The position numbers and the translations under genes were made by a program. Below, in pieces: positions 5,576 through 34,951 of a stretch of 64,000 nucleotides of DNA; the stretch's first letter is position 1; every line of letters begins with the position of its first letter. Under the pieces are notes generated by a model. The model did no database searches and had not been told where the DNA came from. It was given only the letters and a program-made list of their open reading frames with translations. The DNA is from Candidatus Thorarchaeota archaeon (GTDB lineage Archaea; Asgardarchaeota; Thorarchaeia; Thorarchaeales; Thorarchaeaceae): positions 83,285-147,284 of the forward strand of contig SDNP01000002.1 in the NCBI GenBank assembly GCA_004524445.1, in the 5' to 3' direction.

Positions 5576-5591
5576 GAGAACATGTGTTCTA
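5576..5591. promoter_or_regulatory. Degenerate copy of the 16-bp palindrome (GAGAACATGTGTTCTA) upstream of the Cas2-like gene
   Basis: 14/16 identical to TAGAACACGTGTTCTA and 17 bp upstream of the TTG start at 5609. Confidence 0.65.
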
Positions 5592-5608: not shown

Positions 5609-5899
5609 TTGGCATATTTGTACATCTATGATTGTGTTGCGGCCAGAGAGAGCAACGCCAGAAGAGTGTCCTTCACAAAGGAGCTCTACGGATTCACCTA
5701 TTCCTGGAAGACCAAATCAGGTATGAAGACGAAAAGAAAGATTGGACTCATTGAGGAGTGTATGGGAGCTGAGCCAGTCACAGACTCTGCCATTCTAGTC
5801 CCCGATAGCTGCAAGGATCAATTTGACGAACTCTTTGTATATTATCGGGATATACTAAAAATCAAAATCTTCAAAGTGGAGTCAGAAGTATATTTGTAA
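5609..5899 (+). CDS. Small Cas2/VapD-like ferredoxin-fold protein adjacent to the putative origin
   Basis: YLYIYD beta strand, RRVSFTKELYG helix and a later DSAILVP strand resemble the Cas2 layout (YD...RR..K.L..YG...QxSVF). 96 aa. Confidence 0.5.
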   Translation: MAYLYIYDCVAARESNARRVSFTKELYGFTYSWKTKSGMKTKRKIGLIEECMGAEPVTDSAILVPDSCKDQFDELFVYYRDILKIKIFKVESEVYL

Positions 5900-5927
5900 T
5901 ACAAATAATACATTTTTGTAGGAACAA

Positions 5928-5943
5928 TAGAACACGTGTTCTA
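5928..5943. promoter_or_regulatory. Perfect 16-bp palindrome TAGAACACGTGTTCTA (left of origin)
   Basis: Read directly and identical to 6142-6157. Confidence 0.8.
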
Positions 5944-5953
5944 AATCTAACCA

Positions 5954-5976
5954 GACCCCATTATTTCCAGTGGAAG
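5954..5976 (-). promoter_or_regulatory. ORB element
   Basis: Reverse complement CTTCCACTGGAAATAATGGGGTC. Confidence 0.85.
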
Positions 5977-6097
5977 ACAATATAAATTACAAAGAAGATA
6001 ATTAGTAAAGTATAAATAGTAGTATATGTACCCCGATATTATCTCCATTTCTATATATATCATACAACGGGTTCCTGGATCCTCATCCATTTCTATA

Positions 6098-6120
6098 CTT
6101 CCAGTGGAAACGAGGGGGTA
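6098..6120 (+). promoter_or_regulatory. ORB element
   Basis: CTTCCAGTGGAAACGAGGGGGTA, near-consensus with G-string. Confidence 0.9.
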
Positions 6121-6141
6121 TATTAGCCAGCGAATATTAAC

Positions 6142-6157
6142 TAGAACACGTGTTCTA
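6142..6157. promoter_or_regulatory. Perfect 16-bp palindrome TAGAACACGTGTTCTA (right of origin)
   Basis: Read directly and identical to 5928-5943. Confidence 0.8.
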
Positions 6158-6242
6158 AGTACTATTCCAGTACCACAACACTGATAGACGATATGAGTGT
6201 CGCTGAAATTGTTGGCATGATATGCCTTTGGAGAATTAGGTC

Positions 6243-8138
6243 ATGACAAAACCGAAGGACTTGTTGGAAGATAATCCTGGTAAGAGTATTCTATTATTGG
6301 CAAACGAAGCCATTGCAAGGGGAACTCTTGAGGCTGGAGTTAGACTAGTCGCATTGTATCCTGGGACGCCCAGTAGTGAAATTGGAAATAATCTCACCTT
6401 CATGGCGCCACATATCCCGAACTTCTACTTTGAATTCAGCACGAACGAAAAGGTGGCTATGGAGGTTGCTGGTTCTGCTGCAGTAGCCGGGGTTCGCTCA
6501 ATGATGGTCTGCAAGGGACCGGGTCTCAATGTAGCAGCAGACCCGTTTTTCTCCTTGGCCTATGTTGGTGTCCGAGGGGGAATGGTTATCGTTGTTGCAG
6601 ACGACCCCAGTATGTGGAGTTCACAGAATGAAAATGACAGTCGGTATTATGCACTGATGGGTAATATGCCCATGATGGAACCCTCAGATCCTGCAGAGGC
6701 AAAATCAATGCTTCTTGAAGCCTACAAATTTTCAGAGAGTCTAGAGCTTCCGGTATTATTTAGGACCACAACTCGTGTAAATCATACTCGTGCCCCTGTA
6801 GTATTGGGGCCCATTGAGGATCGGCCAGATAAAGTGGAATTCGAAAAAGAACCAACTCGATTTGTTCCAGTTCCCTCTGTTGCACGACAACGTCATCCCT
6901 GGTTGTTGAAACAAATAGACGCCGCAAGAGAATTGTCGGAACAAAGCGAACTGAATTTCGCCGTCGGCGAGGGTGACCTCGGAATCATTACTAGCGGGGT
7001 CTCGTACAATTATGTAATGGAATCACTTACCCGACTAAATACTAAAGCAGAAATTCTCAAACTTGGCATTACTCATCCTGTACCCGAACGGAAGATCATC
7101 GAGTTTCTGAAGCGCCATGAGAGCGTTGCTGTGGTGGAAGAGTTAGAACCCTTCATCGAGACTCATGCTCGTCGACTGTCTAATCTACATGACCTATCCA
7201 ATGTTGAAATTCTAGGAAAGGAACAAGGATACTTCCCAAGAGTGTATGAATACACTCCCAAAATAGTTACCGAAGGACTAGCAAAAATACTAGACAAAGA
7301 ATTACCCGTAGATTGGAAGCATTTAGATACACTCAGCGAAGAGATTCCTGATCTCCCTCCGCGACCACCTCTGTTGTGTGCCGGCTGTCCGCACCGAGCG
7401 TCATATTTTGCTATCAGAACCGCCACTCGCGGAAAAGCAATCTATCCATCTGACATAGGATGCTATACACTTAGCATTGCACCACCATTAGAAACCGCCG
7501 ACATATTGTTTGACATGGGGTCTTCTATCAGCACAGCATGTGGATTATCTCAAGTGACTGGACAAGAAGTTGTTGCGAGTATTGGAGATAGTACTTTCTT
7601 TGCTTCAGGTCTGCCTGGCATCGTCAATGCCGTATATAATGGCCATCCGATTAGCCTAGTAGTCCTTGATAACCGAACGACAGCCATGACTGGTCATCAA
7701 CCACACCCGGGGACAGGAGTCACCGGTATGCAGGAGAAGGTTGAACCACTAGACATTGAAGGAGTCTGCAAGGGACTGGGTGTCAAATACACCAAAACAG
7801 TGGACCCCTTTGAGCCACTTGCCGATCTTGTGGCTGAAGTACGTAAAATGGTTGAATGGGTCAGGGAGAATAAGGCACCGGCTGTCCTAGTATCCAAAGC
7901 ACCATGTGCTTTACTCACGGCTGCAGAACGACGTCGAACCCAAGAGCAACCAGAGCCATACTTTGTGGATTCGGAGATGTGTACAGGATGCAAACGATGT
8001 CTCAACAGATTTGCCTGTCCTGCTATGTATTGGGACTCAGAAACAGAGAAGGCTGCCATTGATGAAACACTCTGTAATCTATGTGGGAGTTGTGTATCTG
8101 TCTGTCCTCAAGGGGCCATAGTACAGAAGGAGGAATGA
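6243..8138 (+). CDS. iorA: Indolepyruvate ferredoxin oxidoreductase alpha subunit
   Basis: NEAIARG, YPGTPSSEI, NEKVAME, SSQNEND, RPPLLCAGCPHR, SDIGCY and GDSTF motifs, plus two C-terminal CxxCxxC ferredoxin motifs. Confidence 0.93.
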   Translation: MTKPKDLLEDNPGKSILLLANEAIARGTLEAGVRLVALYPGTPSSEIGNNLTFMAPHIPNFYFEFSTNEKVAMEVAGSAAVAGVRSMMVCKGPGLNVAADPFFSLAYVGVRGGMVIVVADDPSMWSSQNENDSRYYALMGNMPMMEPSDPAEAKSMLLEAYKFSESLELPVLFRTTTRVNHTRAPVVLGPIEDRPDKVEFEKEPTRFVPVPSVARQRHPWLLKQIDAARELSEQSELNFAVGEGDLGIITSGVSYNYVMESLTRLNTKAEILKLGITHPVPERKIIEFLKRHESVAVVEELEPFIETHARRLSNLHDLSNVEILGKEQGYFPRVYEYTPKIVTEGLAKILDKELPVDWKHLDTLSEEIPDLPPRPPLLCAGCPHRASYFAIRTATRGKAIYPSDIGCYTLSIAPPLETADILFDMGSSISTACGLSQVTGQEVVASIGDSTFFASGLPGIVNAVYNGHPISLVVLDNRTTAMTGHQPHPGTGVTGMQEKVEPLDIEGVCKGLGVKYTKTVDPFEPLADLVAEVRKMVEWVRENKAPAVLVSKAPCALLTAAERRRTQEQPEPYFVDSEMCTGCKRCLNRFACPAMYWDSETEKAAIDETLCNLCGSCVSVCPQGAIVQKEE

Positions 8139-8141
8139 AAA

Positions 8142-8753
8142 ATGAGTGGTAATACTAGTAATACAGACACTGTTGATATTGTAATCTCTGGCGTTGGAGG
8201 ACAGGGAGTCTTGACCCTGGCAGAAATCTTGGCGAAGGCAGCACTAGCCGAGTCCAAAAATGTTAGAGTTGGAGAAATACATGGGATGGCTCAACGTGGG
8301 GGTCACGTCATCTGTACAGTTCGTATCGGACCTGATGTAAGTGGACCTATTGTTGATCCCGGTACAGCAGACATCTTAGTTGGTTTCGAACCAATTGAAA
8401 CGCTGCGAGAGATAGAAAGCATAAGTAAGGACGGCAAAGTACTCATGAACTCAAATGTCCTTCATCCCGTAGCAGTATCAATGGGCAAAGCTGAATATCC
8501 AAAACATGCTGACATTGTAGAATCGATTAAACCATTCACCAAGAATCTCATACAATTTAATGCAATGAACCTTGCAAAGGAAGCGGGTAGTGATAGGGCA
8601 ATGAATATGGTCATGTTTGGTGCAGTCATTGCACTTAACCTCACAGGCATATCAACAAACACAGCAAAGAAGACCATTAGAAACACATTCCCCGGGCGCT
8701 ATGAGGACATCAACATCCGCGCTTTCGAATCTGGAATGAAGCAAATCAATTAA
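8142..8753 (+). CDS. iorB: Indolepyruvate ferredoxin oxidoreductase beta subunit
   Basis: GVGGQG and EIHGMAQRGG motifs; follows iorA. Confidence 0.92.
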   Translation: MSGNTSNTDTVDIVISGVGGQGVLTLAEILAKAALAESKNVRVGEIHGMAQRGGHVICTVRIGPDVSGPIVDPGTADILVGFEPIETLREIESISKDGKVLMNSNVLHPVAVSMGKAEYPKHADIVESIKPFTKNLIQFNAMNLAKEAGSDRAMNMVMFGAVIALNLTGISTNTAKKTIRNTFPGRYEDINIRAFESGMKQIN

Positions 8754-8804
8754 TAGCACCAAACATCTGTTCAGGACCAGATAATTTTTGTATTATTTGT
8801 AATA

Positions 8805-11171
8805 CTATCTTGTAAGTCTGCTTGCTGCAACTGCCACTTGCCCAACTGAAATACCACCATCTCCAGGGGGAATTGAGTCTTGAAGGAGAGGCTCAAGCCC
8901 ATGACGATTCAATTCGGCTATTATTGCTCTTGTGATAATTCTATTCAAGGCAACTCCACCAGAAAATCCAACCTGTCGTATGCCATGATTATCAGCCGCT
9001 TGAGCTGCAATTCTGGCAAGCCCCCTTCCTACTGCTTGTTGTACTGCCATGGCCAGGTGTGATCTCTTTTCTCCTTGTTCTTTCATTTCAAGGAGTCGAA
9101 GAAGAAGATGCTCTGTGTCAAGCTGAGGACTTCCATTTGGTGATACTATATGTGGCTCAATTGATAGCTTTGTTGGCACAGCAACTGCTTCCAGTTTCAT
9201 TGGACACTCCCCATCATAGCTATTCTGGAAACATACTCCAAGAGCAAATGCAGCTGCATCTAGCACACGACCGGTACTGCTACTCTCAATCGTGTTTATA
9301 TTTTTGTCAAGGGCAATGAGCATCTGCTCGAAGGATTCCTCATTCATGCATATATCAGCTGCAACTTCTACATCTCGGACGTACCCAAACAACTCCTCTC
9401 TGCTTAACGAACCTCCTACGATTCCCATAAACGGTCGTGCCGCATATTTTGCTGATAGATCTCCACCAACATACAACTGAGGAGTCAAACCTCCAAACTT
9501 GGAGAAATGCCTCCCATTCCCAACTAGGACTTCTCCTCCCCATGCTTCGCCATTAGGCCCGTAGCCATAACCATCGGCTGTAATACAGATAATACTTGTA
9601 TCAGTCGTTAGTTTGTTATCAACTAGGATGGAAGCCAAATGAGCATGGTGATGCTGAACTTGGACCAAGGGAATATCCTTCTCTTGGGAGATGCGCCTTG
9701 CAAGATCAGTACTGAGAAACTCAGGATGTAAATCACAAGCAATACCATCAAGTTTCTCGACGCCAATGAGACTCATCAGATGTTGATACGCATCCCTAAG
9801 AAATTGAATATTCTCTAATTGGTCCGTATCACCAATGTATTGAGTAGGATATATGCTAGTTGCCTTCAGAATTGACGCGGTAGCTTTTTCTTCTGGACCC
9901 GTAGCAACAAGATTAAGACCATCACCAGGATAAGAAATTGGAATTGGTTCTGGCACATAACCTCTCGATCGTCTTATGAAGACAGAATTTTCATTAGTTA
10001 CGTACTTGATTACAGAATCATCAGCTCTTTGCCATATTCTTCTATCATGTACCAAGAAGTAGTCTGCAATCCCAGAGAGGTCTTTTCGCATTTTCTTTGG
10101 ATCGATGTACATCGGTATGCCAGTAGGGTTGGCACTTGTCAAAACAATGGCAGGTTCATCCATATAATGAAAGAGGAGATGATGAGAAGGAGCGTAGGGG
10201 AGCATAACACCTACGGTGTCCAGTCCGGGAGCTATGCTATCCAATGAATCTCGTGGTATTATATTCAACGCATTTTGTGACTCTCTTTTTCTAACAAGGA
10301 CAATAGGACGTCTCCACGAAAGAAGATCGTCTAATTCGTTCTCCGACGGATTGAAAGCAGACTCAACAATTGACTTGTTTCTGGCCATAATTGCGAACGG
10401 CCGCTGCTCTCTCATCTTCAATAAACGAAGTCTATTGATTGGCCTCGAGTTTCTAACCGCAGTGGCTAGATGAGTACCGGATATGCCTTGTACTGCCACG
10501 ATTGACCCCGACTCTATTAGCTCTGCCGCACTTTTCACTGCATTTTCTTTGGCAATATTGTTGCCCCTATCATTGAAAAGCTGGTATGTAGGACCACACT
10601 CCTCACATGCTGTTGTCTGTGCATGATATCTTCTATCCAACGGGTCTGTATAACCGGTATTACAAGTATTACATAACGGAAAATCAACCATGGTTGTGTG
10701 AGGTCTATCGTATGGAAGATCAGTGATAGTAGAGTATCTTGGTCCGCAAGCTGCACACGAAATGAATGGATAGAGATACCATCTCGATTGAGGATCGAAT
10801 AGCTCTTCAACACAAGTGTCACAGATCGAAATGTCGGGTGGAATCACTGGTTCCGCGTTACCAGTTTTTTTTGCAGAGGATTTGATTATGGAAAAATCGT
10901 CGAATGAGTTCTGCTTTGGCAACCATTCTGTGTCCAGTTGTTCAATTCTTGAAATGGATGGAGGGTTCTCTTTCAACTCATTAAGCAAAGACTTGATTCT
11001 TGTCTTCTTTCCTTCGACAACAATCTCAACACCTGCATCTCCTAGATTCAAAACATATCCTTTCAAGGATAGTCCCTTTGCCACTCGATATACAAATGGT
11101 CTAAATCCCACACCTTGTACAATTCCATTGATGTGGATTTTAGCTCTGACACTCAGTTTATGAAACCTCAC
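8805..11171 (-). CDS. hypF: Hydrogenase maturation carbamoyltransferase HypF
   Basis: Acylphosphatase GIVQGVGFRPFVY, two zinc fingers, RRSRGY, VQHHHAH and GDGGISVGQ. Confidence 0.95.
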   Translation of the reverse strand: MRFHKLSVRAKIHINGIVQGVGFRPFVYRVAKGLSLKGYVLNLGDAGVEIVVEGKKTRIKSLLNELKENPPSISRIEQLDTEWLPKQNSFDDFSIIKSSAKKTGNAEPVIPPDISICDTCVEELFDPQSRWYLYPFISCAACGPRYSTITDLPYDRPHTTMVDFPLCNTCNTGYTDPLDRRYHAQTTACEECGPTYQLFNDRGNNIAKENAVKSAAELIESGSIVAVQGISGTHLATAVRNSRPINRLRLLKMREQRPFAIMARNKSIVESAFNPSENELDDLLSWRRPIVLVRKRESQNALNIIPRDSLDSIAPGLDTVGVMLPYAPSHHLLFHYMDEPAIVLTSANPTGIPMYIDPKKMRKDLSGIADYFLVHDRRIWQRADDSVIKYVTNENSVFIRRSRGYVPEPIPISYPGDGLNLVATGPEEKATASILKATSIYPTQYIGDTDQLENIQFLRDAYQHLMSLIGVEKLDGIACDLHPEFLSTDLARRISQEKDIPLVQVQHHHAHLASILVDNKLTTDTSIICITADGYGYGPNGEAWGGEVLVGNGRHFSKFGGLTPQLYVGGDLSAKYAARPFMGIVGGSLSREELFGYVRDVEVAADICMNEESFEQMLIALDKNINTIESSSTGRVLDAAAFALGVCFQNSYDGECPMKLEAVAVPTKLSIEPHIVSPNGSPQLDTEHLLLRLLEMKEQGEKRSHLAMAVQQAVGRGLARIAAQAADNHGIRQVGFSGGVALNRIITRAIIAELNRHGLEPLLQDSIPPGDGGISVGQVAVAASRLTR

Positions 11172-11314
11172 TGTTCTGAATTCGTGTTATCGATATTAAT
11201 ACCATGAAGTGGCAAATAATCTCTGTATCGATATAATTGTATTACAAGTATTACAATTAGCAATCGACACTCACAGGTAGGTTTTCTTAAGGCATGGCAC
11301 ATACCCAATTGTGA

Positions 11315-11737
11315 ATGACATTGACTTCCTCAAGGACACCTCATCCGAAACCGGGGAGAGAACCCATAGCTACCCCCTCAATCCTCGCAAACATTCCCGA
11401 CTGTCTTCGGCAAATACTTGTCGAGGCCGCTGATAACTCAAAGAAGAGAAAGAAATCAATTCTGATATCTAGTAATAGTTTGGCTAATAGATTCATTCTA
11501 GAACGATGGGGAATACGACCATCTCAGCGCAGGAAATTCAGAAATCTATTTTCACAAATTCGCAAACACTGTAGGAAGATATTCGATCATCTTCTCAATA
11601 GGAAAAGAATGGAATTCGATATGAATTTGAATCGTTATTTGTTTGGAATCTACAAGTTCGATGAAATCCGCGGAAACACAATCCTTGCTTTTGTACAAGT
11701 TCCTGAGAGAGAAGGATGGACACTTCCCTGCAAGTAA
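11315..11737 (+). CDS. Hypothetical basic protein (140 aa)
   Basis: ATG-started and Arg/Lys-rich, fills the gap divergent from hypF, and is flanked on both sides by 9-bp tandem arrays. Confidence 0.6.
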   Translation: MTLTSSRTPHPKPGREPIATPSILANIPDCLRQILVEAADNSKKRKKSILISSNSLANRFILERWGIRPSQRRKFRNLFSQIRKHCRKIFDHLLNRKRMEFDMNLNRYLFGIYKFDEIRGNTILAFVQVPEREGWTLPCK

Positions 11738-11914
11738 TATGTGTAATACAGTGAAACCTAAGCAAAATCTTTATCCACTATTCGGCGTATACAAAAACGT
11801 ATCCGTAGAGAGTAACAGAAAACCGATTTGACAAAGTCCTCTCATAACTCTTTAAAATAGAAAATAGAGGATTATGAGCCCTTTTCAAAAAACCTCGTTC
11901 TCTCCAAAAATCAG

Positions 11915-12463
11915 GTGGAGATTATGACTCAAGGCACCAACGACGTGAATTTCGAGAAGATAAGGAAGGCTTCCCAGGGCACCAAGAGAGTGCTAAGGGA
12001 ACCAATCATGAAGTCATTACTACAAAATTCCCTCCTCACGGAAACGCAACTAGAAACGCTCCTAATTGATTTGCTTGTCGAAGACAATTTCGGTAAGCAC
12101 ATTCCGTATGATACGAAGGCCTCACTGCGTACAACTGAAAATGGCAAGGGTGTTTCTAGAGGAGCATTCAATAGGACACTTCAACAAGCTCGCGAAAATA
12201 TTACAAAAAGCATCTACACCATGCTTCTGTTAGGATACCTTGGTCTATTTGAAATTGCCATATTTCGGCCATTTGAAGAAGTTGCAGCCAAGATAGGCGA
12301 CTATAGACATATCAGGGAGGTATTGGCAGGAAGAGAAAAGTTAACAGAAGAGGATCTTGAGAGTCATAGGGCCGCAGAAGAAACAATCATTTCTGCACTC
12401 CATGAGCTGGCATCGCCACTGAATCTTAAAACTGAACTATCAAAAGAGACTGGATCTGAATAG
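11915..12463 (+). CDS. Archaeal hypothetical protein with HTH-like segment
   Basis: SLLTETQLETL...GVSRGAFNRTLQQARENI resembles a sigma-region-4/LuxR-like HTH and is followed by a hydrophobic helix. Start may be ATG 11924. Confidence 0.65.
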   Translation: MEIMTQGTNDVNFEKIRKASQGTKRVLREPIMKSLLQNSLLTETQLETLLIDLLVEDNFGKHIPYDTKASLRTTENGKGVSRGAFNRTLQQARENITKSIYTMLLLGYLGLFEIAIFRPFEEVAAKIGDYRHIREVLAGREKLTEEDLESHRAAEETIISALHELASPLNLKTELSKETGSE

Positions 12464-12929
12464 AGTCTCCGTGCAAGCTTCTTCCGTATTATTCCAGGAA
12501 TCAATGATTGCGAAGTAAAAAAATTGGCACGAATGTGTCGTGTTTTATGACTGAACTCGTAAGCGACGAGTAGTTCCGCACAGTCCTACCTACACTGTAT
12601 CTACTTGGAGGTATATTTGTATGAGGAGATAGAGATAGCAATGCAAGTTGAGATCTGTGACTTATGAAACAAACCTCGAAACCAGCATTCAATCATTACT
12701 CCACAACACACTCACTCTATATAGGAATACATTGATACATAGTTCTAATCATAGAACAAGCATTTTTGGCACTATTATTCGTATTTTTAATAGTAATAAA
12801 TTATTTACAGAAAAATTTGCACGAATCATATTATTATTTGTAATACAAATAATACGTCACCCCCTCATTTTGAAAAGTAATCTTGTTTTAATACAAAATG
12901 AACACATGAACAGTGGTAGTGAATAGAGA

Positions 12930-14144
12930 TTGGATTACAGTAAGGCACGAAAACGATTACGGGAACAAGTGAGGAAGAAAATCCAGCAGCTATCGGAAAT
13001 CGAGCTCAGTAAAGCAATAACTAATGCCATTGGCGAGAGGCGGATTAGGGATTTAATTGATTATCTTATTGGTATTGAATTAGAGGAGGGTTGGAACCAA
13101 TCTCTAGACTATTTGGGGGATTCACTAAATCGAGAGTATGAAATCCCTCCACTGACCGGAAGGAAGACAAGAAGAATGGAACCCCTCAAATTTCGGGAAG
13201 TCCTTTTTTCTATCTTCGATTGCCAAGGGCTAGAAGCAATCAATATAGACACCATGACCATAATCTCAAAACTCCATAATGCACAATCAATCACAAATGC
13301 AGAGATATTCTTTAAAGAAATAGTTAATGAAAAACTTCAGTGTCATTTGAAGGATTCCAACCTTCTCTTCATTAATATCGATGGTGTGAAATCTTACCTT
13401 GACACCAACCTGATAAATCAGATCCATGAAAAGATGGAGGAAAACCTGTTGTCAGTTTCACTGAAGAGCAATTCCGAGTCGGTTGACATATCACCATTAT
13501 GGTACACAGAGTATGGTCGGACAGCTCTGTGCAGACTTGGGATACAGGGAAGCCATATCGACAAACAAACACTCGACATGGTATTATCCGTATTACCAGT
13601 ATCACAAACTGTTCGGGGCAATATTACTAATAATATGCATGCAAGACGCCTGAATCCTCCCCTGAATGATGAATATCAATCTCTGCTTAGAGCAATGATT
13701 GAGCAAGATATTATGACTCTTGCAAAACTTGGTAGTCGAAATGCGATTCCTCTCATGAACTACTTGCTTGAAGAATCTGTTGACACTTTTAATTCAGAAT
13801 ACACCTCCCAAAAATATTCCAAAATAGCAGAGCAGTTATCCAATCATTTGTTTATCCGGTCAATCGATTCTATCCTGTCGTTTGAAAAGATGACAAGGGC
13901 CGATGATCATCGCATCTCAAGTCTAGCAATTATTGCTCTAGGCAACTACTACCACGAATCCGCAGTTATCATCTTGGCAGAAATACTGTGCAGAACAAAA
14001 AACAGTGATCTTGTAAACTACGCATCACAATCACTTAGACGGATCAAGAGCAAATTTCCTGAAACCAAACCTATACTCAAGAAATTGATGGATACTATGC
14101 ACAATAATTGCAAGCCGCTCAGACAATTTTTGGAGAGTTACTAA
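12930..14144 (+). CDS. Hypothetical alpha-helical protein with C-terminal HEAT-like repeats
   Basis: 404-aa ORF with HEAT-like pattern ISSLAIIALGNY...AVIILAEIL...VNYASQSLRRI. Confidence 0.6.
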   Translation: MDYSKARKRLREQVRKKIQQLSEIELSKAITNAIGERRIRDLIDYLIGIELEEGWNQSLDYLGDSLNREYEIPPLTGRKTRRMEPLKFREVLFSIFDCQGLEAINIDTMTIISKLHNAQSITNAEIFFKEIVNEKLQCHLKDSNLLFINIDGVKSYLDTNLINQIHEKMEENLLSVSLKSNSESVDISPLWYTEYGRTALCRLGIQGSHIDKQTLDMVLSVLPVSQTVRGNITNNMHARRLNPPLNDEYQSLLRAMIEQDIMTLAKLGSRNAIPLMNYLLEESVDTFNSEYTSQKYSKIAEQLSNHLFIRSIDSILSFEKMTRADDHRISSLAIIALGNYYHESAVIILAEILCRTKNSDLVNYASQSLRRIKSKFPETKPILKKLMDTMHNNCKPLRQFLESY

Positions 14145-14231
14145 CCAACTCAACACAGAAATCATGTATTATATGTAATACAAAGCTAAATCACAACAGA
14201 ATTAAAACTGTAGTGGTAGTGAACCAGTCCC

Positions 14232-15620
14232 ATGAGCGGTACATTAGATTCCAATGCAATGCAGATTGGCAAATTTTTCAATCCAAATAGTGTTGCCTTG
14301 GTCGGAGCTTCGGCTGATTATAGAAAACTGGGAAATTCAATTCTCATGAACTTACTTGCGTCAGAGGTAGAAGTATATCCTGTCACTCGAAGTAGAACCC
14401 AGGTTCTGGGAGTAAAGGCATATCCCAGTCTCATAGATTTGCCGAAGAGAGTTGATCTCGTTATCATTGCAGTTGCCGCCAAATATTGTCCCAATCTGAT
14501 GCAAGATGTAAGGCAGGCAGGTGCTCACCATGCTGTGATAATCTCTGGAGGTTTCAGTGAAACTGGTGATGAAGGAGCTAAACTGGAAGAGCTTCTTGTG
14601 GAAGAAGCCAAGAAGAATGAAGTACGGATTATTGGTCCAAATTGCGTTGGGGTTTCCAACAGTCGTTTATTCAATGGCACATTTACGATGATGCCCGAAA
14701 GAGGTAATATCGCCTTAATTTCGCAAAGTGGTGCTCTTGGTGGAATGCTGATATACACGACACGGTCGAAACGAATAGGGATGAGTAAGTTCGCAAGTAT
14801 TGGAAATGCAGCTGATGTTGAATTTACCGAGCTACTCGATTATTTCAGTAAGGACCCAAAGACATCTGTTATCGCTGTCTATATTGAGGGTGTCGAACAT
14901 GGCCGTGCACTTTACGAGTCATTAAGAACTGCATCGCGGAAAAAACCCGTAGTGGTTCTTAAGGGTGGAAAAAGCAAAGCGGGAAGCAAAGCAACGCTGA
15001 GCCACACAGGGTCTCTTGCCGGGTCACCTCGATTGTTTGATGGGATGATTAAACAAGCAGGTTGTGTTTGTGCACCCACCTTTGACTCGTTCTTGGAAGT
15101 CTGCAAGTTATTTGACTATCAGCCTCTGCCACAAGGTCGTAATATTGGTATTATCAGTAATACAGGGGGTGCCGCAGTCTTAGCAACTGACGCTGCATCC
15201 GCATTGGGGCTCAAGATACCTACACTTGAAGAATCCACAATGAAAGAAATGAGACAAGCAATGTCACCAATGGCATCCGTTGAAAATCCTGTTGATGTTG
15301 TGGCAAGCGGGGGTAGAAGAGAATACAAACTGGCAACAAAGTTAATGCTGGAAGATAACCATGTTGACATGCTATTGGTAATCTGTGGAGTCCCAACTTT
15401 TGCGGGAATGACTCAGACAGAGCATGCTGCTGGTACGTTGGAGGGAATTAGGACTGCAAATAACAACAAACCCGTTGTTGGTGTTTGGCTTTCAGGAGAT
15501 GTGGGTAAACCTGGAAAGGATCTACTTGAGATGAATCGAATTCCTTGTTATGACGATCCTTCACTGGCGGCGTTATGCATGGAACGAGTTGCTTCATATT
15601 CACTTCATGAACAGAGGTAG
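14232..15620 (+). CDS. acdA: Acyl/acetyl-CoA synthetase (ADP-forming) alpha subunit
   Basis: FFNPNSVALVGAS, IIGPNCVG, SQSGALG, SHTGSLAG (phospho-His) and ENPVD. Confidence 0.9.
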   Translation: MSGTLDSNAMQIGKFFNPNSVALVGASADYRKLGNSILMNLLASEVEVYPVTRSRTQVLGVKAYPSLIDLPKRVDLVIIAVAAKYCPNLMQDVRQAGAHHAVIISGGFSETGDEGAKLEELLVEEAKKNEVRIIGPNCVGVSNSRLFNGTFTMMPERGNIALISQSGALGGMLIYTTRSKRIGMSKFASIGNAADVEFTELLDYFSKDPKTSVIAVYIEGVEHGRALYESLRTASRKKPVVVLKGGKSKAGSKATLSHTGSLAGSPRLFDGMIKQAGCVCAPTFDSFLEVCKLFDYQPLPQGRNIGIISNTGGAAVLATDAASALGLKIPTLEESTMKEMRQAMSPMASVENPVDVVASGGRREYKLATKLMLEDNHVDMLLVICGVPTFAGMTQTEHAAGTLEGIRTANNNKPVVGVWLSGDVGKPGKDLLEMNRIPCYDDPSLAALCMERVASYSLHEQR

Positions 15621-15647
15621 ATATGTTTCTGTAATACAATTATTACC

Positions 15648-15938
15648 TTAGCTTTCAAGATGAACTCCAGCGATATTTGGAAATTCTTCCTGAACTGCAT
15701 CTCTCAGCTTGCGTTCTACCCACATGCTCAGATTAATTGCCCGTTCTGTTCTTACAGCCTGGAGGCAGGACCTCAGGTCTGTACTAACGCTAAAAGACAT
15801 GATTGGACTATTCCTTTCTTTATTTGGAACGGCTACACTTTCTTGTTGCTTAGCTTCTGCAGTGGTTTCAATTTCTTCCTCTGTTGTATCCTTGTCGCGT
15901 TTCTCCTCTTCTTTCCTATATTTTCCTAAGAGACTCAA
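15648..15938 (-). CDS. Ribbon-helix-helix DNA-binding protein with charged disordered N-terminal tail (SegB/ParG-like architecture)
   Basis: Beta strand IMSFSVS, helix TDLRSCLQAVRTE, turn AINLS and helix MWVERKLRDAVQEE. The TTG start abuts the upstream stop and is preceded by GGAGGT. Confidence 0.7.
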   Translation of the reverse strand: MSLLGKYRKEEEKRDKDTTEEEIETTAEAKQQESVAVPNKERNSPIMSFSVSTDLRSCLQAVRTERAINLSMWVERKLRDAVQEEFPNIAGVHLES

Positions 15939-16913
15939 CTATCTTACCTCCTTCAATATACTTGCATACGCCTCTGAAACCAATCTGGCAATTTCCACAT
16001 TTATTTCAGGGCTACCACTCTCCCGAAGGTTTTCAGCTGCAACCTGCTGGCACCCTCGAGCCAGCATACGAATATCCCGTGGATTTCCTCCTGCAGCATC
16101 ATTGATCACCTCAATTGCTTCTTCATGGAATGGATAAACATCAAAATCTGTAGGATCAAAGCTATCGATTTCCCCTTTAGCATACGCTATTCTTCTGCCA
16201 ATGAATTCTTTCGCTTTGCCGTCTTCGAGCTTCGGAATGTCCAACGGTTCTGTCCTATCAGCTATTTGAGGGAGAAAATTAAGCATTGCATTCCAATACT
16301 CTGCAGTTCCACTCATCACGAGTGTAACTATTGGTTCATCCAAGGTTCTGGGATACTCATCTTTCATTTCTTCCGTAGGAAGATCGGCAAGGTATCTGAG
16401 TTTGTGAAAGGCAGCCTCTTGATTATCTGCAACATCCTCGATGAAAAGAGCAGTTCTACTCTGTTCCTCTATGTAGCGACGTACACACTCCTTTGCAACC
16501 GCCTCTATAATTTGAGAAGACTCCCAAGAGCGTCTATACTTGATTCTCAACGAGTCGGCAATGGCAGCAGCCATTTGTTTCTCATATAGACCAGTCATTC
16601 CAACGTACCCTGTGACAAATTTATTTCCCCTTCTATCGGCCAATGTGGGAAGGTCTCTCAATGCCAATAACATTAGAGTACTCTTTCCCGAACCTACAGG
16701 GCCTCTAAGGAAAATATGACGTTCATTGGTTATTATTAGATCCACAATACTATCAAGAAAATCAGGGTGCTCCACATAGAGCCTCGAGTCCGGCATTTTG
16801 AATCCTCGAAATGGTGAGAATCTTGCGCCTATCTTCTCCTCCCACGCTCGAAGTGTTTCTTTTCGAGTATTGAAATGACGAATCAATGCGGATTCGTGAA
16901 CTGCAATTGTCAT
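15939..16913 (-). CDS. AAA+ ATPase of ExeA/TnsC-like (AAA_22) type
   Basis: Walker A GPVGSGKST, variant Walker B LFIED, sensor-I LVMSGT, arginine finger IADR and sensor-II GNPRDI. N-terminal SPF motif as in ExeA-like proteins. Confidence 0.85.
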   Translation of the reverse strand: MTIAVHESALIRHFNTRKETLRAWEEKIGARFSPFRGFKMPDSRLYVEHPDFLDSIVDLIITNERHIFLRGPVGSGKSTLMLLALRDLPTLADRRGNKFVTGYVGMTGLYEKQMAAAIADSLRIKYRRSWESSQIIEAVAKECVRRYIEEQSRTALFIEDVADNQEAAFHKLRYLADLPTEEMKDEYPRTLDEPIVTLVMSGTAEYWNAMLNFLPQIADRTEPLDIPKLEDGKAKEFIGRRIAYAKGEIDSFDPTDFDVYPFHEEAIEVINDAAGGNPRDIRMLARGCQQVAAENLRESGSPEINVEIARLVSEAYASILKEVR

Positions 16914-17106
16914 TGTTTCAATTCCTTTGTATCACAAGTAGTGTTTGTATTACAATATTTCGATGGCTTTTCCTACATAAATATTGCGAGAGAAGTCAGC
17001 TTCTGTATCATGGTCGTTTCCATACGGAACCTTTTTGAGCAACTACAAACTGCCAGAGAGCTAGCAGAGATAGAAACCTGTTTCTAACCTCTGGGAGGAA
17101 TAAGAA

Positions 17107-17385
17107 GTGAATCTAGATAGAATTCGACGAGTCCTTAATTCAATGATGATTTTTACTTTCCTAATTTTTGGAGCGCTCGTTGGGATAATATTCCTCTTAG
17201 ATACTCCTCTCACTAAATCCGTTGCCGCTCTCCCGTTCGCCTTTCTGTTTATATCTGCAATGACTCTCATCACAACCGGTCAGATTAAAGAGAAACCAAA
17301 GGCCGCAATGAAATATGTACAAGAGTGGCTTGCCATATGCATATTTGTCGTACTAATTGCAGCCGCAGTTTATCTCGTTTCCTAA
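17107..17385 (+). CDS. Small membrane protein (3 predicted TM helices)
   Basis: Three hydrophobic stretches. GGAGG lies upstream of the GTG start. Divergent from the AAA+/RHH operon. Confidence 0.7.
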   Translation: MNLDRIRRVLNSMMIFTFLIFGALVGIIFLLDTPLTKSVAALPFAFLFISAMTLITTGQIKEKPKAAMKYVQEWLAICIFVVLIAAAVYLVS

Positions 17386-17458
17386 TACAATAGTTTTAGC
17401 ACTTCATCTACCTCAACGATTTGCCTCAGCAACTAGTCAGTTATACAAAGAGAGAACT

Positions 17459-18096
17459 ATGAGTAAAATCCTGCCTGGAACAAAGACCACAAGGATGTAA
17501 TTACTTCGAATTAAGAACAGGAAAGAGCTTGGAGAACGAGGTCATAATCTGCTAAAAGAAAAGCGTGATGCATTGATTATGGAATTCTTCAATACCACAG
17601 CCGAAATAAAAAAGGCAAGACAGGGTGTGGAAGCTGCTCTCTTAGAAGCCTACTCTGACTTAACACAAGCCAAGATGATGATGGGCCCAGCTCGAGTAAA
17701 AGCATTCATCTATGCAAGCATGATGAAGAACAGGTTGAATATCAAAACCAGATTGCTTATGGGTGTTCGAGTACCTGTCTTGTCAGTTGAATAGGAAATA
17801 CCTGAATTGCCCATGCTTTAGCTGGCTCCAGTACCAAACTTGATATTATGGCTAAAAGATTCCAAGAGGCTTTGATTGCCATATTGGGACTAGCTGAAAT
17901 TGAATGGACCCTGAAGCGACTAGCACTTGAGATTGAACGAACTAAGCGACGAGTATCTGCTCTGGAAACCATTGTTTTACCTCGCTTGGAAGCAACCGCA
18001 CGGTTTGTCAGGCTGGCATTAGAGGATCGGGAAAGAGAAGAATCCATTCGCCTTAAGATAATCAGAAACCGGATGCAAGAAGAGAAGTCTGCTTAG
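17459..18096 (+). pseudogene. atpD: A/V-type ATP synthase subunit D pseudogene
   Basis: MSKILPGTKTTRM*LLRIK...RGHNLLKEKRDAL...MGVRVP...*...EIERTKRRVSALE. In-frame TAA at 17498-17500, TAG at 17792-17794 and a frameshift before 17848. Confidence 0.88.
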
Positions 18097-18470
18097 CTCT
18101 TTCTCAATTTCAATATTGCAGCGGCTAAATCGCCTTTTGTTTCTTCAAGAGTTTGCTTTGCCGTTTGAATATCTGTTCCAGTCTGTTCAGCAACCAGTGC
18201 TGCATCTTCCATGGGTATCTCAACTTTCTTCTCTTCAATCGGAGCTGCCTTGCCACCCTTTGTAATATCTCTCTCAGTTTTGGATCCGCTGATTTGATAG
18301 GACTCATTGCCAGCTTGTTTCACAAGCGCTACTTGTGGGTCTTCTATCACCCATTCCTTGTCAGCAAATCGAATGATCACTTCATTTACTCCATCAATGT
18401 CTTTTTGTTCTATGCCCATCTTCTTCATCATTCTAGCAAGTTGCTTAGGTGACAGTCCTCTGAAACCCAT
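18093..18470 (-). CDS. nac: Nascent polypeptide-associated complex protein
   Basis: LSPKQLARMMKKMGI...VNEVII and C-terminal UBA ...GDLAAAIL. Start trimmed to ATG 18470 (18485 also possible). Confidence 0.9.
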   Translation of the reverse strand: MGFRGLSPKQLARMMKKMGIEQKDIDGVNEVIIRFADKEWVIEDPQVALVKQAGNESYQISGSKTERDITKGGKAAPIEEKKVEIPMEDAALVAEQTGTDIQTAKQTLEETKGDLAAAILKLRKS

Positions 18471-18546
18471 TGTTTTTTTCCTCATGATATATTCGTGTTT
18501 ACATACTACACTAGGTTCAATTCTATCAAACGATAAAACAATTACG

Positions 18547-19392
18547 TTATCTGTTAGAATCAAGGTTGATATCAAAGACCATATGACTAACGCCCGGTGA
18601 ATACTTCTTAATCGGTCTGGAAGAAATTTTGGCCATGAATCCATATTCTGAAGATTCAGTAATAATTGTATTACGGATTTTCCTCTCATCATTTCCATGT
18701 ACTAAGCTGTGCATATGGATAATCCCGCCCCGGAATCGTAATCCATTCAACGCATGTGGCAAATAATCAACTGTATCATGTAGATATCCCATCACAATTC
18801 TATCCGCATCCCTAAATGTCACATCTCTGCAGTCTCCTAATACTGCCGTCATATTCTCATGAACCTCATTCATTCTGATGTTCTGACATAGGAAATCGTA
18901 TGCCAAGTCATTAATATCAATGGCCAAGACATTTGCCCCTGAATGAAAAGCTATTGGCAATGAAAACTGGCCGACACAAGCAAACATGTCAACAACATGC
19001 TCATCTGAACTAACCTGCTGAGAGAGAAAAATTCTCTCATTCACATTGCCTCGAGAAAATGTAATTCGCATCGGATTGAGTTTGAATTCTATCCCGTTCT
19101 CGGTATGAGTTGTTGTTGTGTTCTTACTACCAGCCACTAGTTTGTAGTTCGGAATTCGTTTTTGACCACGTGTTGGCCCCATTCTTACTCCAACGGATTT
19201 GGATCTAGACTCAAATTCTAATGTGAGCTCTCCAATAACATCTGCCAAAGGTAGTAGATCGGGGTGAATACTCAATAGCACCACGTGACCGATTAATTGA
19301 TACCCCTTGGGAAGCTTAGCAGGGTCCTCTATAGAATTGCCAATCGCATTCACTAAGAAATCATAATATTTCATGCTCTCAACTTCAATCAA
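18547..19392 (-). CDS. taw2: Trm5/Tyw2-family SAM-dependent tRNA-modifying enzyme (Taw2-like)
   Basis: YQLIGHV, HTENG, FSRGNVNER, VVDMFACVGQFS and ADRIVMGY. Confidence 0.75.
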   Translation of the reverse strand: MIEVESMKYYDFLVNAIGNSIEDPAKLPKGYQLIGHVVLLSIHPDLLPLADVIGELTLEFESRSKSVGVRMGPTRGQKRIPNYKLVAGSKNTTTTHTENGIEFKLNPMRITFSRGNVNERIFLSQQVSSDEHVVDMFACVGQFSLPIAFHSGANVLAIDINDLAYDFLCQNIRMNEVHENMTAVLGDCRDVTFRDADRIVMGYLHDTVDYLPHALNGLRFRGGIIHMHSLVHGNDERKIRNTIITESSEYGFMAKISSRPIKKYSPGVSHMVFDINLDSNR

Positions 19393-19410
19393 GGAAAACG
19401 ATTGCTGATT

Positions 19411-20622
19411 TTAGCCGTACATATGCGATTTAATCTCGTTAGCTCTTCCTCTATTCCTGACTTTCTCTATGGCCATTCTAAAGTCAGTCTGAGTGACATA
19501 TCCGCGTTCAGCTCGAATTGCAAACATACCTGCTTCAGTGACAATTGCCTTCAAATCAGCTCCAGTAGTTCCCCGAGTCGCTGAAACAAGCTGATTATAA
19601 TCGACATCAGAATCTACAGTTAGTGGCCTAGTATGAATCTTGAAGATTTCTTTTCGACCCTTTTCATCAGGTTTTGGAAAGTCTATGATTCTGTCGAATC
19701 TCCCAGGACGGAGCAAAGCCGGATCCAAAATGTCGGGTCTATTTGTGGCACCCAAAATTGCAACTTGACCTCGACTTTCAAATCCATCTAATTCGCTCAG
19801 AAGCTGCATCAAGGTTCTCTGAACCTCTCGGTCTCCAGATGTTGCTATGTCCAGCCTTTGTGAACCTACAGCATCGAGCTCATCAATAAACACTATTGCT
19901 GGAGATTTCTCTTTGGCCAACATGAATATCTCTCGCACCAAACGAGCACCTTCTCCAATGAACTTCTGAACAAGTTCCGATCCAATGACACGAATAAATG
20001 TCGCATTTGTCTGATGCGCAACTGCTCTCGCACTCAATGTCTTGCCTGTTCCTGGCGGGCCTGTAAGTAAGACACCTCTGGGAGGCTCAATTCCAATTTG
20101 TTCAAACAACTCGGGTTTCAGCAGGGGATACTCGACAGTTTCTTGTATCTCTCTGAGCTGCTCCTCTAGGCCACCAATATCTACATATGACACTTGAGGT
20201 TTCTCTTCAATCTCCATCGCACGAATGAGTGGATCTCTCGAAGGAGGGAGTTCTTGTGTTACTGCAAACGATCTTTGATTGAGGGCAACACGCGTTCCAG
20301 ATTGTAACTTCTCACTCGATATAGAAGATGAAACATGAACAACAAAATTTGGTCCAGTTGAGCTTTTCACTATTGCTCGACCATCTTCAAGCATTTCGAC
20401 AATGGTAGCCGTAATCAATGGCGATTGTCTTAGCTTCTCCAGTTCTGTCCTAAGAGTTTGAGTCTCCTTCTCAAGCCTACTACATTCGGCGTGGAGGATT
20501 TGCTTCTCTGTTTCCAGTGCTCTAAGACGTCTCTCCAAATGTCGAGCATAGCTCTGTGAATATGAAGAGTCCTCGACGCCACCATCTTCTTTTGCATCAG
20601 TACTACCTGGCAATCGATGCAC
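19411..20622 (-). CDS. pan: Proteasome-activating nucleotidase
   Basis: Coiled coil, [30 protein letters not shown] and C-terminal HbYX (MYG). Confidence 0.95.
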
Positions 20623-20782
20623 CTCGACCTCACTTTCTATAGTATCGATTTAAGGATATCCTTAACGTTCACCATTTTTTGTATCAGGGTTTCAATTCTC
20701 TACATAATGTTATTTTCACATTCCATTTTCGTAATACCAGTATTACAATACAGGGGAGAAATGTTTTACAAAAGGAATGAGA

Positions 20783-27902: not shown

Positions 27903-28655
27903 CTAGTCACCTATTTCTCGAGGTATGAAGAGATGCATAGGAACTCCCCTTAATACTGGACCTATAGCAGCGATTATGCCTGTTGCTCGTGTTGACCGTT
28001 TGCATCTCAGGGAAAACTCGAATGGTCCTAGTCTCTCAATCTCATAGATATCCTGTCTATGATTTGTCCTTTCAAGTGCACCATCAATCATATCGCGATT
28101 GGCGCCAAATACTAAGAGACGCTGATGGTCGTCATTGCTCCAAGTATCTAATTGGCCAATGAAATCGGATGTAAATTCAGCCTCGATCTCAACACTTCTT
28201 TCATCTTTATGTACAACTTCTACTGTCACAGGAAGATTATCTACAAGTACAAACGAACCTGCAATACTCCGTACTGATGCATTCATCTCAAACTGAGAAC
28301 GAAGCTTGTGTAATGGTACTAATGCATCACTCATGGATGGGTTGGTAATACCAACATCAACATAGACTCCATAGCCCACCTTTCCCACATCTCGAAGTTG
28401 TCCGGAATATACATCTCCTGTTGACAGAGACCTCAAGGATGTGGTTGTGCCATATTCCCCCGCTAGAGTATTGCTGACAAATTCTTCATCGTCACCATCT
28501 AAAGATACGATAATATGACCTCTCTCATCAATGGAAACCTTCTCAATCCGTATATCAAGCTCGGAGGTTCGCTCATGAAGGTCTGTTTCAAAATCACGAA
28601 TAAGCCTATTCTGGTAATCCCCATATACTCGCGCCAGTAAGGTTAACTCCATCAT
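27903..28655 (-). CDS. DUF2110-like archaeal OB-fold protein
   Basis: LARVYGD and GKVGYGVYVD motifs, in its usual position downstream of tfe. Confidence 0.75.
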   Translation of the reverse strand: MMELTLLARVYGDYQNRLIRDFETDLHERTSELDIRIEKVSIDERGHIIVSLDGDDEEFVSNTLAGEYGTTTSLRSLSTGDVYSGQLRDVGKVGYGVYVDVGITNPSMSDALVPLHKLRSQFEMNASVRSIAGSFVLVDNLPVTVEVVHKDERSVEIEAEFTSDFIGQLDTWSNDDHQRLLVFGANRDMIDGALERTNHRQDIYEIERLGPFEFSLRCKRSTRATGIIAAIGPVLRGVPMHLFIPREIGD

Positions 28656-28710
28656 TTCACAAACTCCTTCTGTTCATCTGACTACAAGTGCTTCCTAAAA
28701 TGAATTTGTA

Positions 28711-29235
28711 CTATGTGGAGGCTGTTTCCAAATCCGCCCTCAGTTCCTCTACACGTTTCTTTAGAAAACTCACGGCCTTGGTATTATCAACATACTCAAG
28801 GGGTTCATTACAGTTCGGACATCGAAATGATAGACTCATTGCCTCTTCAAAAGGAACAGGCGATGAATCACGATTTACACAGACATAGAGGTCATTATTA
28901 CTCTCATGTTTCAATCTTTGTTCAAGAAGATTCAGTACCATTTTCTTCTTCCTATTTACAAGTGCCTGGGCTTTCTTTGGATCGATTCGCCAATAATAGA
29001 GAAACCATCCGGTATTGCTGTCACGAATTCTACGATATGATGCCAGATGATTATCATGCAAATTATAGAGGATTTTCCTCACAACATTAAGCTTCAAATC
29101 AGTCTTGGTGGCTATCTCCTCATCGGTTGTTTCATCCGAATTTACTAGTACAGTAGCAACGTCCACCCCTTCCTTTCCGGCTATCTCTTCCACTACAAGT
29201 CTGAATAGGTCATTGTTAAAGGTTGATTGGGACAT
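28711..29235 (-). CDS. tfe: Transcription factor E (alpha)
   Basis: TDEEIA..VRKILY.L, TGWFLYYW and zinc ribbon FEEAM...FRCPNC. Confidence 0.95.
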   Translation of the reverse strand: MSQSTFNNDLFRLVVEEIAGKEGVDVATVLVNSDETTDEEIATKTDLKLNVVRKILYNLHDNHLASYRRIRDSNTGWFLYYWRIDPKKAQALVNRKKKMVLNLLEQRLKHESNNDLYVCVNRDSSPVPFEEAMSLSFRCPNCNEPLEYVDNTKAVSFLKKRVEELRADLETAST

Positions 29236-29390
29236 TTGCTGATTTCACCTAAGTTGCTATATTTGGCTATATGACTGGACCTGTATCAGTTTCAGAAGTT
29301 CAAGCCCAAAGCTGTGCATCTACTATATTATTTAGTTACATGATATATAAGAGCTATTCTTTACCCGTTAGAAACTCTCATCTAGATGAT

Positions 29391-30005: not shown

Positions 30006-30039
30006 GGCATAGATAAAGATTGACGTTGGTGAAAGACAA

Positions 30040-31254: not shown

Positions 31255-31391
31255 CTCTTTTCACCAAAATCATGTTTCCATTAATCGAGGATGGCTAGTT
31301 CACAATGCAACCTATCCACAACTACTCTGTCCTGCGTTTACTCAAAAATGTGTCTGCACACAACGCAGTGACCTAACAACGAACGACCGAT

Positions 31392-34890: not shown

Positions 34891-34951
34891 AATATCAACA
34901 CCTTTCAATCATTTTCGAGGTGCTCATTATCAGAATAAAACCTTCGTATTC

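Follow-up and report, generated by a model that had tools for sequence, protein, structure and literature searches.

A conserved field of tandem 9-bp palindromes beside the predicted replication origin of Thorarchaeota, and a candidate AAA+/ribbon-helix-helix module linked to it

We analyzed a 64-kb stretch of the genome of a Candidatus Thorarchaeota archaeon (assembly GCA_004524445.1, contig SDNP01000002.1, positions 83,285 to 147,284; hereafter the window, in whose numbering all coordinates are given unless stated otherwise), in which a field of short tandem repeats extends from a predicted replication origin (oriC) and encloses an operon encoding an AAA+ ATPase and a ribbon-helix-helix (RHH) protein. 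The site field was confirmed to be real, unique within the genome, conserved among relatives, and under selection at the level of the DNA. An earlier reading of the window, made from its letters alone (the sequence-only reading), had proposed that the field is a centromere-like region bound by the RHH protein and served by the ATPase as a partition motor of a new class. Our own reading, to which we assign a probability of roughly 45%, is that an Asgard module comprising an ORC-like AAA+ protein, an RHH protein with a tail, and probably also a helical protein as its third component sets up a centromere-like, origin-proximal nucleoprotein domain.

The repeat field and the predicted origin

The repeat unit is a 9-bp palindrome, TGTAWTACA (TGTA-W-TACA), whose copies are arranged head to tail at intervals of exactly 9 bp. 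We scanned the window and the whole assembly (2.79 Mb, 64 contigs) with the doublet pattern GTAWTACANGTAWTACA, allowing two mismatches or fewer and using 100 shuffles as the control. The pattern matched 26 times in the window, compared with 0.07 matches expected from the shuffles, none of which came near the observed number. In the whole assembly it matched 27 times, and 26 of these matches fell between positions 5895 and 20747 of the window, which places the doublets near the putative oriC. Even the bare core GTAWTAC occurs only 212 times genome-wide. Within the field, pairs of cores (one mismatch or fewer) were separated by 9 bp (17 pairs) or 18 bp (4 pairs) and by no other distance, and no core pair at 9 bp was found in the other 43 kb of the window. 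The sequence-only reading had described 15 arrays of a head-to-tail 9-bp unit and nothing comparable from 21 to 64 kb; all 15 were recovered, at starting coordinates from 5895 to 20730, and the unit proved to be palindromic in addition. The arrays contain two or three units each and lie 0.5–2.3 kb apart, and their spacing is more regular than that of random points (coefficient of variation 0.55 vs. 0.94, P = 0.011). Nine of the 15 are intergenic or at gene boundaries, and the remaining six lie in coding sequences (hypF, a CoA-ligase gene, a HEAT-like gene, and others). The triple site described upstream of the operon start and the double site at its last stop codon are both present (Table 1).

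The field is a property of the family rather than of a single genome. In a sample of 41 family genomes, doublets (one mismatch or fewer) were detected in 38, with approximately zero matches for a reversed-pattern control, and in each genome nearly all matches were located within one stretch of 10–40 kb on one contig. The AAA+/RHH operon was likewise present as a single copy in 38 of the 41 genomes, always within the doublet cluster, and the co-occurrence of protein pair and motif in related genomes, which the sequence-only reading had proposed to look for, is thereby established at the family level. Three genomes (G014, G037, and G044) contain neither the operon nor the sites, nor hypF and the orthologous CoA ligase. 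The entire syntenic block is missing from these assemblies; thus, the joint absence of sites and operon is uninformative, and we rejected these genomes as natural knock-outs.

For a positional comparison, we took the 40 kb surrounding the operon in ten additional genomes, which together with the source genome gave a set of 11 genomes from 10 genera. Measured from the ATPase start, core positions recurred at +1.3, 1.8, 2.8, 3.3, 4.1, 5.2, 5.7, 6.2, 7.3, 8.1, and 8.7 kb, followed by an origin recognition box (ORB) at about +10–11 kb. A triple array was found directly upstream of the ATPase start in all 11 genomes and a doublet directly after the RHH stop codon in 8 of them. The array inside the CoA-ligase gene was the most conserved 18-nt window of the 12-kb alignment. 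Furthermore, the conservation of third-codon positions was 0.83 within arrays and 0.50 elsewhere in the same genes (39 vs. 1822 positions, p = 4e-17), indicating that selection acts on the DNA itself.

The origin is predicted from several features. ORBs with G-string extensions face each other at approximately 5965 (−) and 6100 (+) across an AT-rich core, the GC skew of the contig changes sign at this pair, and the contig also carries two Orc1/Cdc6 genes (PF09079), at distances of 25 and 63 kb from the pair. In relatives with compact layouts, cdc6 and the gene for the PolD small subunit stand directly at the homologous ORB pair. Based on the inverted ORBs with their AT-rich core, the skew switch, and the conserved linkage of ORBs, cdc6, and the module, the ORB pair is a credible oriC.

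Other elements were observed around this origin. The palindrome AGAACAyGTGTTCT, 14–18 bp long as (TT)AGAACAnnTGTTCT(AA), brackets the ORB pair (5929–5942 and 6143–6156), and a third copy (5577–5590) is located just upstream of a 96-aa gene. Copies of this palindrome also flank the ORBs of Freyr-type and sister-family genomes (L033:8906–8923 and 9617–9634; L042 at ~2645 and ~2850; L044 at ~11440–11470), which makes it a second conserved origin element. The 96-aa gene (5609–5899, +) abuts the origin and has no family match; counterparts with 39–42% identity lie beside ORBs in five other Asgard families examined, including Freyr-type f7, f19, Odin, and the Thor sister family. Its product may be an origin-associated factor, perhaps the one that reads the AGAACA palindrome. 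At 1852–1861 (−), 4.1 kb from the ORB pair and upstream of a 208-aa gene (2182–2808), there is a third full ORB with a G-string (CTCCAGTGGAAACGAAGGGGTG), and relatives have a second ORB at about the same distance. The GC skew is strongly negative at approximately 28000–36000, with a further turn of the cumulative skew near 48 kb.

The ATPase, its tailed partner, and the reader of the sites

The stop codon of the ATPase gene (TAG) is directly followed by the start codon of the RHH gene (TTG), and in relatives the two codons overlap (ATAATG), in agreement with the translational coupling that had been proposed. The RHH gene follows directly downstream, abutting the AAA+ stop codon, in all 11 genomes compared. 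In conservation, the ATPase gene ranks first in the neighborhood, with a mean identity of 83% across genera (PAN, 79%; HypF, 54%), and its family is small: 26 proteins were found at E ≤ 1e-3 among 1.84 billion cluster representatives. Its Walker A and Walker B motifs read GPVGSGKST and LFIEDV, and residues G74, G76, K77, R220, and R279 are invariant across distant homologs. Contigs from RNA libraries (metatranscriptomes) were 100% identical to parts of the AAA+ and RHH genes and covered the operon partially, which is a weak hint that it is expressed.

In the AlphaFold model of the ATPase (mean predicted local distance difference test score, pLDDT, 91), the best fold matches in the PDB were archaeal Orc1/Cdc6, eukaryotic ORC/Cdc6, and TnsC; the top Foldseek matches were 1w5t, 1w5s, 1fnn, and 2qby, with E-values down to 3.6e-10 and template modeling (TM) scores of 0.51–0.59. 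The model has two helices between β2 and β3, in line with an AAA+ module of the initiator clade, and the chain ends after the lid domain, with no C-terminal winged helix (PF09079). The ATPase (P0001) scored 14 bits against the Orc1/Cdc6 model TIGR02928 (cut-off 181.3) and 24.2 bits against the AAA_22/ExeA-like family PF13401 (gathering score 27); some of its orthologs carry a precomputed PF13401 match, and the remote homologs P0137 and P0144 retain a C-terminal winged helix-turn-helix (wHTH). Sequence searches of the PDB returned no usable match for the AAA+ protein. The deviant Walker A of ParA/SopA (KGGxGK[ST]) is absent from the ATPase, and no AAA_31/CbiA match was obtained in the field. 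The AAA+ fold and the classical Walker A thus bear out the earlier view that the ATPase is not of the ParA, actin, or tubulin type.

Two other readings of the locus were discarded. The operon is unlikely to be a defence or toxin-antitoxin system, given that it has no PADLOC match, is single-copy and syntenic, and includes the most conserved gene of the region; nor is the field an integrated plasmid, given its conserved housekeeping genes and stable synteny across genera. In addition, a copy 84% identical to the Thor ATPase was found at the start of a contig in one genome of family f12 (G129:C249:2-955), the 18 other members being without it; this copy likely reflects a mis-binned contig.

In the RHH protein, the tip MSLLGKYRK is invariant, the charged linker is variable, and the C-terminal β-α-α part is conserved. 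The Gerdarchaeota ortholog P0148 scored 23.2 against Pfam RHH_1 (PF01402; cut-off 20.5) and aligns with the Thor protein (P0002) over the RHH_1 region, P0002 alone remaining below the cut-off. A search of PDB sequences with the RHH profile gave no usable match. Tips resembling SLLGKYRK were found only in the RHH gene in a six-frame scan of the genome. The invariance of the tip and its recurrence on an unrelated partner, a KaiC-like ATPase (see below), suggest that the tail is an ATPase-docking element. A prediction of the AAA+/RHH complex, with both proteins given as alignments, scored 0.00, a value that is uninformative about binding.

RHH proteins such as MetJ, omega, ParG, and CopG bind tandem short palindromes at a spacing of 7–13 bp. 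A 9-bp palindrome with half-sites 5 bp apart and a 9-bp period would fit one dimer per unit with contacts between dimers, and on this basis we favor the RHH protein as the probable reader of the sites. The outward-facing residues of its β-strand, read from the alternation pattern, are S-S/T-S in Thor and Gerd, where the sites are GTAWTAC, and N-N-R in Freyr-type genomes, where the sites are GATATC. This supports covariation of the site motif with the RHH protein across lineages, as the sequence-only reading would expect. The sites could instead be read by the 182-aa UPF0251-like helical protein or by an unlinked factor, with the RHH protein acting as a local autorepressor only. In every Asgard lineage examined, the helical gene accompanies the module, and in Freyr genomes its translation is coupled to that of the RHH gene; moreover, its product has a weak DUF134 helix-turn-helix (HTH) match (E = 0.005), and a site lies 165 nt upstream of the gene. 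However, the HTH-like segment of this protein is invariant across lineages with different motifs, whereas the RHH β-strand changes with the motif, which argues for the RHH protein as the reader. The half-site distance also suits one RHH dimer in one major groove and not an HTH dimer, and a fold search with the helical protein (pLDDT 83) returned nothing below E = 0.5 and no DNA-binding match; its profile had no usable match among PDB sequences either. We therefore regard a reader other than the RHH protein as improbable.

Table 1. Features of the field, the module, and the predicted origin (window coordinates, except for plasmid pNG100)
Feature	Position	Strand	Remarks
ORB, left arm of inverted pair	5955..5985	-	
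ORB, right arm of inverted pair	6096..6122	+	
AAA+ ATPase, 324 aa	15939..16913	-	ORC/Cdc6/TnsC-like fold, without winged helix
Tailed RHH protein, 96 aa	15648..15938	-	MSLLGKYRK tip, charged linker, C-terminal beta-alpha-alpha
Helical protein, 182 aa	11915..12463	+	UPF0251/DUF134-like HTH segment; third gene linked to module
Array 1, 2 units	5895..5912		over stop codon of 96-aa origin-adjacent gene
Array 2, 2 units	8148..8165		junction of two oxidoreductase genes (IOR/POR type); position kept in relatives
Array 3, 2 units	8789..8806		between convergent 3' ends of POR-gamma-like gene and HypF
Array 4, 3 units	9579..9605		within hypF; synonymous positions conserved
Array 5, 3 units	10647..10673		within hypF
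Array 6, 2 units (one exact, one with 1 mismatch)	11238..11255		divergent intergenic region, hypF / 140-aa gene
Array 7, 2 units	11733..11750		over stop codon of 140-aa gene; 165 nt upstream of 182-aa gene
Array 8, 2 units	12839..12856		plus single units at 12887 and 12931
Array 9, 3 units	13576..13606 (13576/13590)		within 404-aa HEAT-like gene
Array 10, 2 units	14165..14182		intergenic
Array 11, 3 units	15138..15164		within CoA-ligase gene
Array 12, 2 units	15630..15647		abuts RHH stop codon, convergent 3' ends
Array 13, 3 units, middle one degenerate	16928..16954		ends 14 nt before AAA+ ATG; putative operator
Array 14, 2 units	18658..18675		Trm5 3' end / NAC 5' region
Array 15, 2 units	20730..20747		upstream of PAN gene; extra single unit at 20762
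pNG100 AAA+/RHH-like module	L048 17495-18825 and 19280-19553		both genes annotated hypothetical

Two of the genes between arrays stand out within the well-conserved block. The 404-aa HEAT-like protein (12930–14144, +) has only ~31% identity across genera, and the 92-aa open reading frame before it (12648–12926, +) was found only within the genus. Arrays persist at 12648–14144 although the genes there diverge.

The module in other lineages and on plasmids

The ATPase was found in 57 of the 201 Asgard genomes sampled, namely in 40 of 43 genomes of its own family, in the sister family, and in four other families. In every other lineage inspected (Gerd/Heimdall, Freyr-type f7, f19, Odin, and the Thor sister family), the AAA+ gene, an RHH-type gene, and the helical gene were located together 1–10 kb from ORBs and cdc6, usually beside hypF. 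Orthologous operons were thus origin-linked in every lineage examined, as the sequence-only reading requires. In Gerdarchaeota, the same GTAWTAC core is packed into ~1 kb after the operon, including an array of ~7 units, with further sites at the promoter and between the AAA+ and RHH genes. In Freyr-type lineages, the RHH protein is different and the site is GATATC, with copies in the promoter, in the space separating the two genes, downstream of the RHH gene, and next to the ORBs; in a closed 3.58-Mb Freyr-type genome, 9 of the 10 occurrences of GATATC-N5-9-GATATC were within 11.4 kb around oriC and the module. A GTAWTAC scan of the Freyr and Odin loci revealed no cluster. The candidate motif of Odin (GGAATACA-like 9-bp tandems) has few sites only and is not established.

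More remote homologs occur in other settings. In Bathyarchaeota (L032:1576–2472 and L041:4089–5021), the ATPase homolog precedes, and is coupled to, a KaiC/DnaB_C-like ATPase with three copies of the peptide (S)VLSKY(R/K)K at its N-terminus, and a D5-type primase gene lies nearby. This locus may be a mobile replicon in which the same putative docking peptide serves a different client. On the haloarchaeal plasmid pNG100 (Haloarcula marismortui, NC_006389.1, L048, 33 kb), a remote AAA+ homolog is accompanied by a 101-aa RHH-like gene; TAAGAC-type repeats occur before, between, and after the two genes, ORB-like inverted repeats and orc1/cdc6 follow directly after the pair, and no ParA-type Walker A was found in the six frames of the plasmid. 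Plasmid searches yielded one weak bacterial match with the Thor ATPase as the query and three weak matches with the Bathyarchaeota homolog, and the Odin homolog was needed as the query to reach the haloarchaeal plasmids. By analogy, the plasmid version and an arrangement of cis and trans elements resembling type Ib and SegAB systems (see below) support a role of the module in replicon maintenance.

Possible functions and relation to known systems

In the mechanism that we propose, an RHH dimer would occupy each 9-bp palindrome and would cooperate with its neighbors where units are phased at 9 bp in doublets and triplets, and occupation of the triple promoter site would autoregulate the operon. 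The N-terminal MSLLGKYRK tip, held on its flexible charged linker, would dock onto the ATPase and regulate its activity. The ATPase appears to have no DNA-reading domain of its own and to possess the arginine finger and sensor 2 of oligomerizing AAA+ proteins; it might assemble on the DNA between the ~15 nucleation sites and convert ~15 kb beside oriC into one higher-order complex, which the cell would use to hold, position, or separate freshly replicated origin regions. Somewhat more tentatively, an RHH adaptor that nucleates an ORC/Cdc6-like ATPase beside oriC could represent an unrecognized machine for segregation or origin handling, shared by several Asgard lineages and some haloarchaeal plasmids.

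Of the partition system proposed in the sequence-only reading, the field, the origin-linked operon, the covariation of the motif, and the non-ParA ATPase have stood, whereas the motor role of the ATPase, the RHH protein as the binder of the sites, and the interaction of the two proteins have not gained the same standing. Several points weigh against a centromere-like domain. In the source genome, the field extends on one side only of the ORB pair. As for the expected absence of parAB/segAB, no ParB_N gene was found, but 5–6 ParA/MinD-like genes are located elsewhere in the genome; thus, a lack of parA cannot be claimed, and these genes and two SMC genes could do the segregating. Thor and Gerd share the motif, yet their RHH proteins are only ~30% identical. 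The small number of sites in lineages L042 and L047 indicates that a large field is dispensable. Of the 201 genomes, only 57 yielded the ATPase, and the two largest Asgard families sampled yielded none; therefore, the module is not a general Asgard solution. To our knowledge, there is also no precedent for an initiator-clade AAA+ protein as a partition motor, and the relatives of the ATPase in this clade load, mark, or remodel DNA rather than move it.

Origin control or packaging is about as plausible as partition and is a serious rival, because the fold of the ATPase is that of replication initiators (Orc1/Cdc6) and of regulators that form filaments on DNA (TnsC), and the module is located at oriC. 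On this view, the AAA+/RHH pair would be a split and retargeted Orc1/Cdc6-like factor: the RHH protein would stand in, in trans, for the winged helix that the ATPase lacks, and the ATPase, brought to the DNA on the flank of oriC, would control initiation; it might sequester or package the fired origin, define a zone of helicase loading or exclusion, or act as a licensing switch. The best structural matches, Orc1/Cdc6 and ORC, and the C-terminal wHTH kept by P0137 and P0144, as in Cdc6, are in line with this view, as are the constant position of the module beside ORBs and cdc6, even on pNG100, and the Freyr-type sites between and adjoining the ORBs. Furthermore, the pairing of the Bathyarchaeota homolog with a KaiC/DnaB_C-like ATPase near a D5-type primase recalls a loader-helicase pair. 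We nevertheless consider this view somewhat less likely than the centromere-like domain: the sites reach 15 kb from the origin through unrelated genes, the genome already has two bona fide Orc1/Cdc6 genes, the ATPase falls far short of TIGR02928 (14 bits; cut-off 181), and the combination of RHH adaptor, tail, and flanking operator sites in one operon is characteristic of partition cassettes and not of initiators. If the RHH protein acted on neighboring promoters as the repressor of an ordinary transcriptional regulon, the arrays in promoter-like intergenic DNA (11238, 14165, 16928, and 20730) would be accounted for, and RHH proteins are commonly repressors. However, six arrays lie in coding sequences, with conservation at synonymous positions, further arrays occupy convergent 3' ends, and the neighbors are functionally unrelated housekeeping genes, a layout that the sequence-only reading had also judged unlike a regulon. 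In addition, 26 of the 27 doublets of the 2.8-Mb genome are confined to the field, and a regulon would leave the dedicated and extremely conserved AAA+ partner unexplained. We regard this explanation as very unlikely and retain the centromere-like, origin-proximal domain as our preferred reading.

The module resembles known systems in part. TnsC, MuB, and IstB are small AAA+ proteins that polymerize on DNA and are steered by partner proteins via short peptides. The fold of the ATPase is similar to theirs (7plh, TM score 0.69 on the target), but the module has no transposase or mobile-element context, and the ATPase gene is a single-copy core gene with conserved synteny among housekeeping genes. 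With Orc1/Cdc6 and their ORBs it shares the initiator-clade AAA+ fold, sensor 2 (GNPR here, cf. GDAR), and the location at oriC, but it lacks the winged helix, scores far below the family cut-off, and is accompanied by sites that are not ORBs; its DNA specificity is proposed to be supplied in trans by the RHH protein. As in bacterial ParB-parS systems near oriC, a genome-unique palindrome is clustered within 10–40 kb of the origin, at orthologous positions and also inside genes. Unlike in those systems, no ParB_N/CTPase protein was found, and an RHH protein, the probable reader, cannot slide; by analogy, the many nucleation sites may substitute for ParB spreading.

The closest parallels in gene order are the type Ib cassettes (ParF-ParG-parH of TP228 and delta-omega of pSM19035), where the gene of a nucleoside triphosphatase (NTPase) precedes that of a small RHH protein whose N-terminal tail is flexible, short tandem repeats lie on either side of the operon as well as at its promoter, and, as in the pNG100 version of our module, the replication origin is adjacent. 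Here, however, the NTPase is an ORC/Cdc6/TnsC-type AAA+ protein with a classical P-loop instead of a deviant-Walker-A ParA, and the sites, some of them inside genes, are dispersed across 15 kb of the chromosome instead of forming one compact centromere. SegAB-segS of Sulfolobales is similarly an archaeal chromosomal operon for an ATPase and an RHH-type protein with an adjoining site and dispersed sites (PMC8682754, PMC12139799), but SegA is ParA-like, and the SegB motif (..P-K/R-I-G/T-V/L-W-S..) is absent here: P0002 reads NKERNSPIMSFSVS, without the W-S signature quoted for SegB (PMC12139799). SegB homologs have been reported only in Thermoproteota and Euryarchaeota (PMC12139799). Full-text literature searches covering archaeal cell-cycle reviews, an Asgard replisome survey, and the SegAB literature yielded no published description of the module, and reviews mention only the presence of ParA/ParB-like genes (PMC7617429).

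The field and its operon provide a testable cis/trans system, with a defined motif, ~15 conserved sites, and candidates for the reader, the ATPase, and the docking peptide; independent replicates with a different motif exist, as does a small plasmid version in a cultured haloarchaeon, Haloarcula marismortui. In fragmented metagenome-assembled genomes of Thorarchaeota, the field is a practical marker of the origin-proximal region. If the ATPase is the working engine of the system, it would represent a new motor class, the fourth NTPase class for partition. ORC-family ATPases would then gain a role outside initiation, in a lineage that is important for eukaryogenesis, and the module would offer a prokaryotic precedent for adaptor-recruited ORC-family proteins that build a chromatin-like domain, comparable to eukaryotic Orc1/Sir3.

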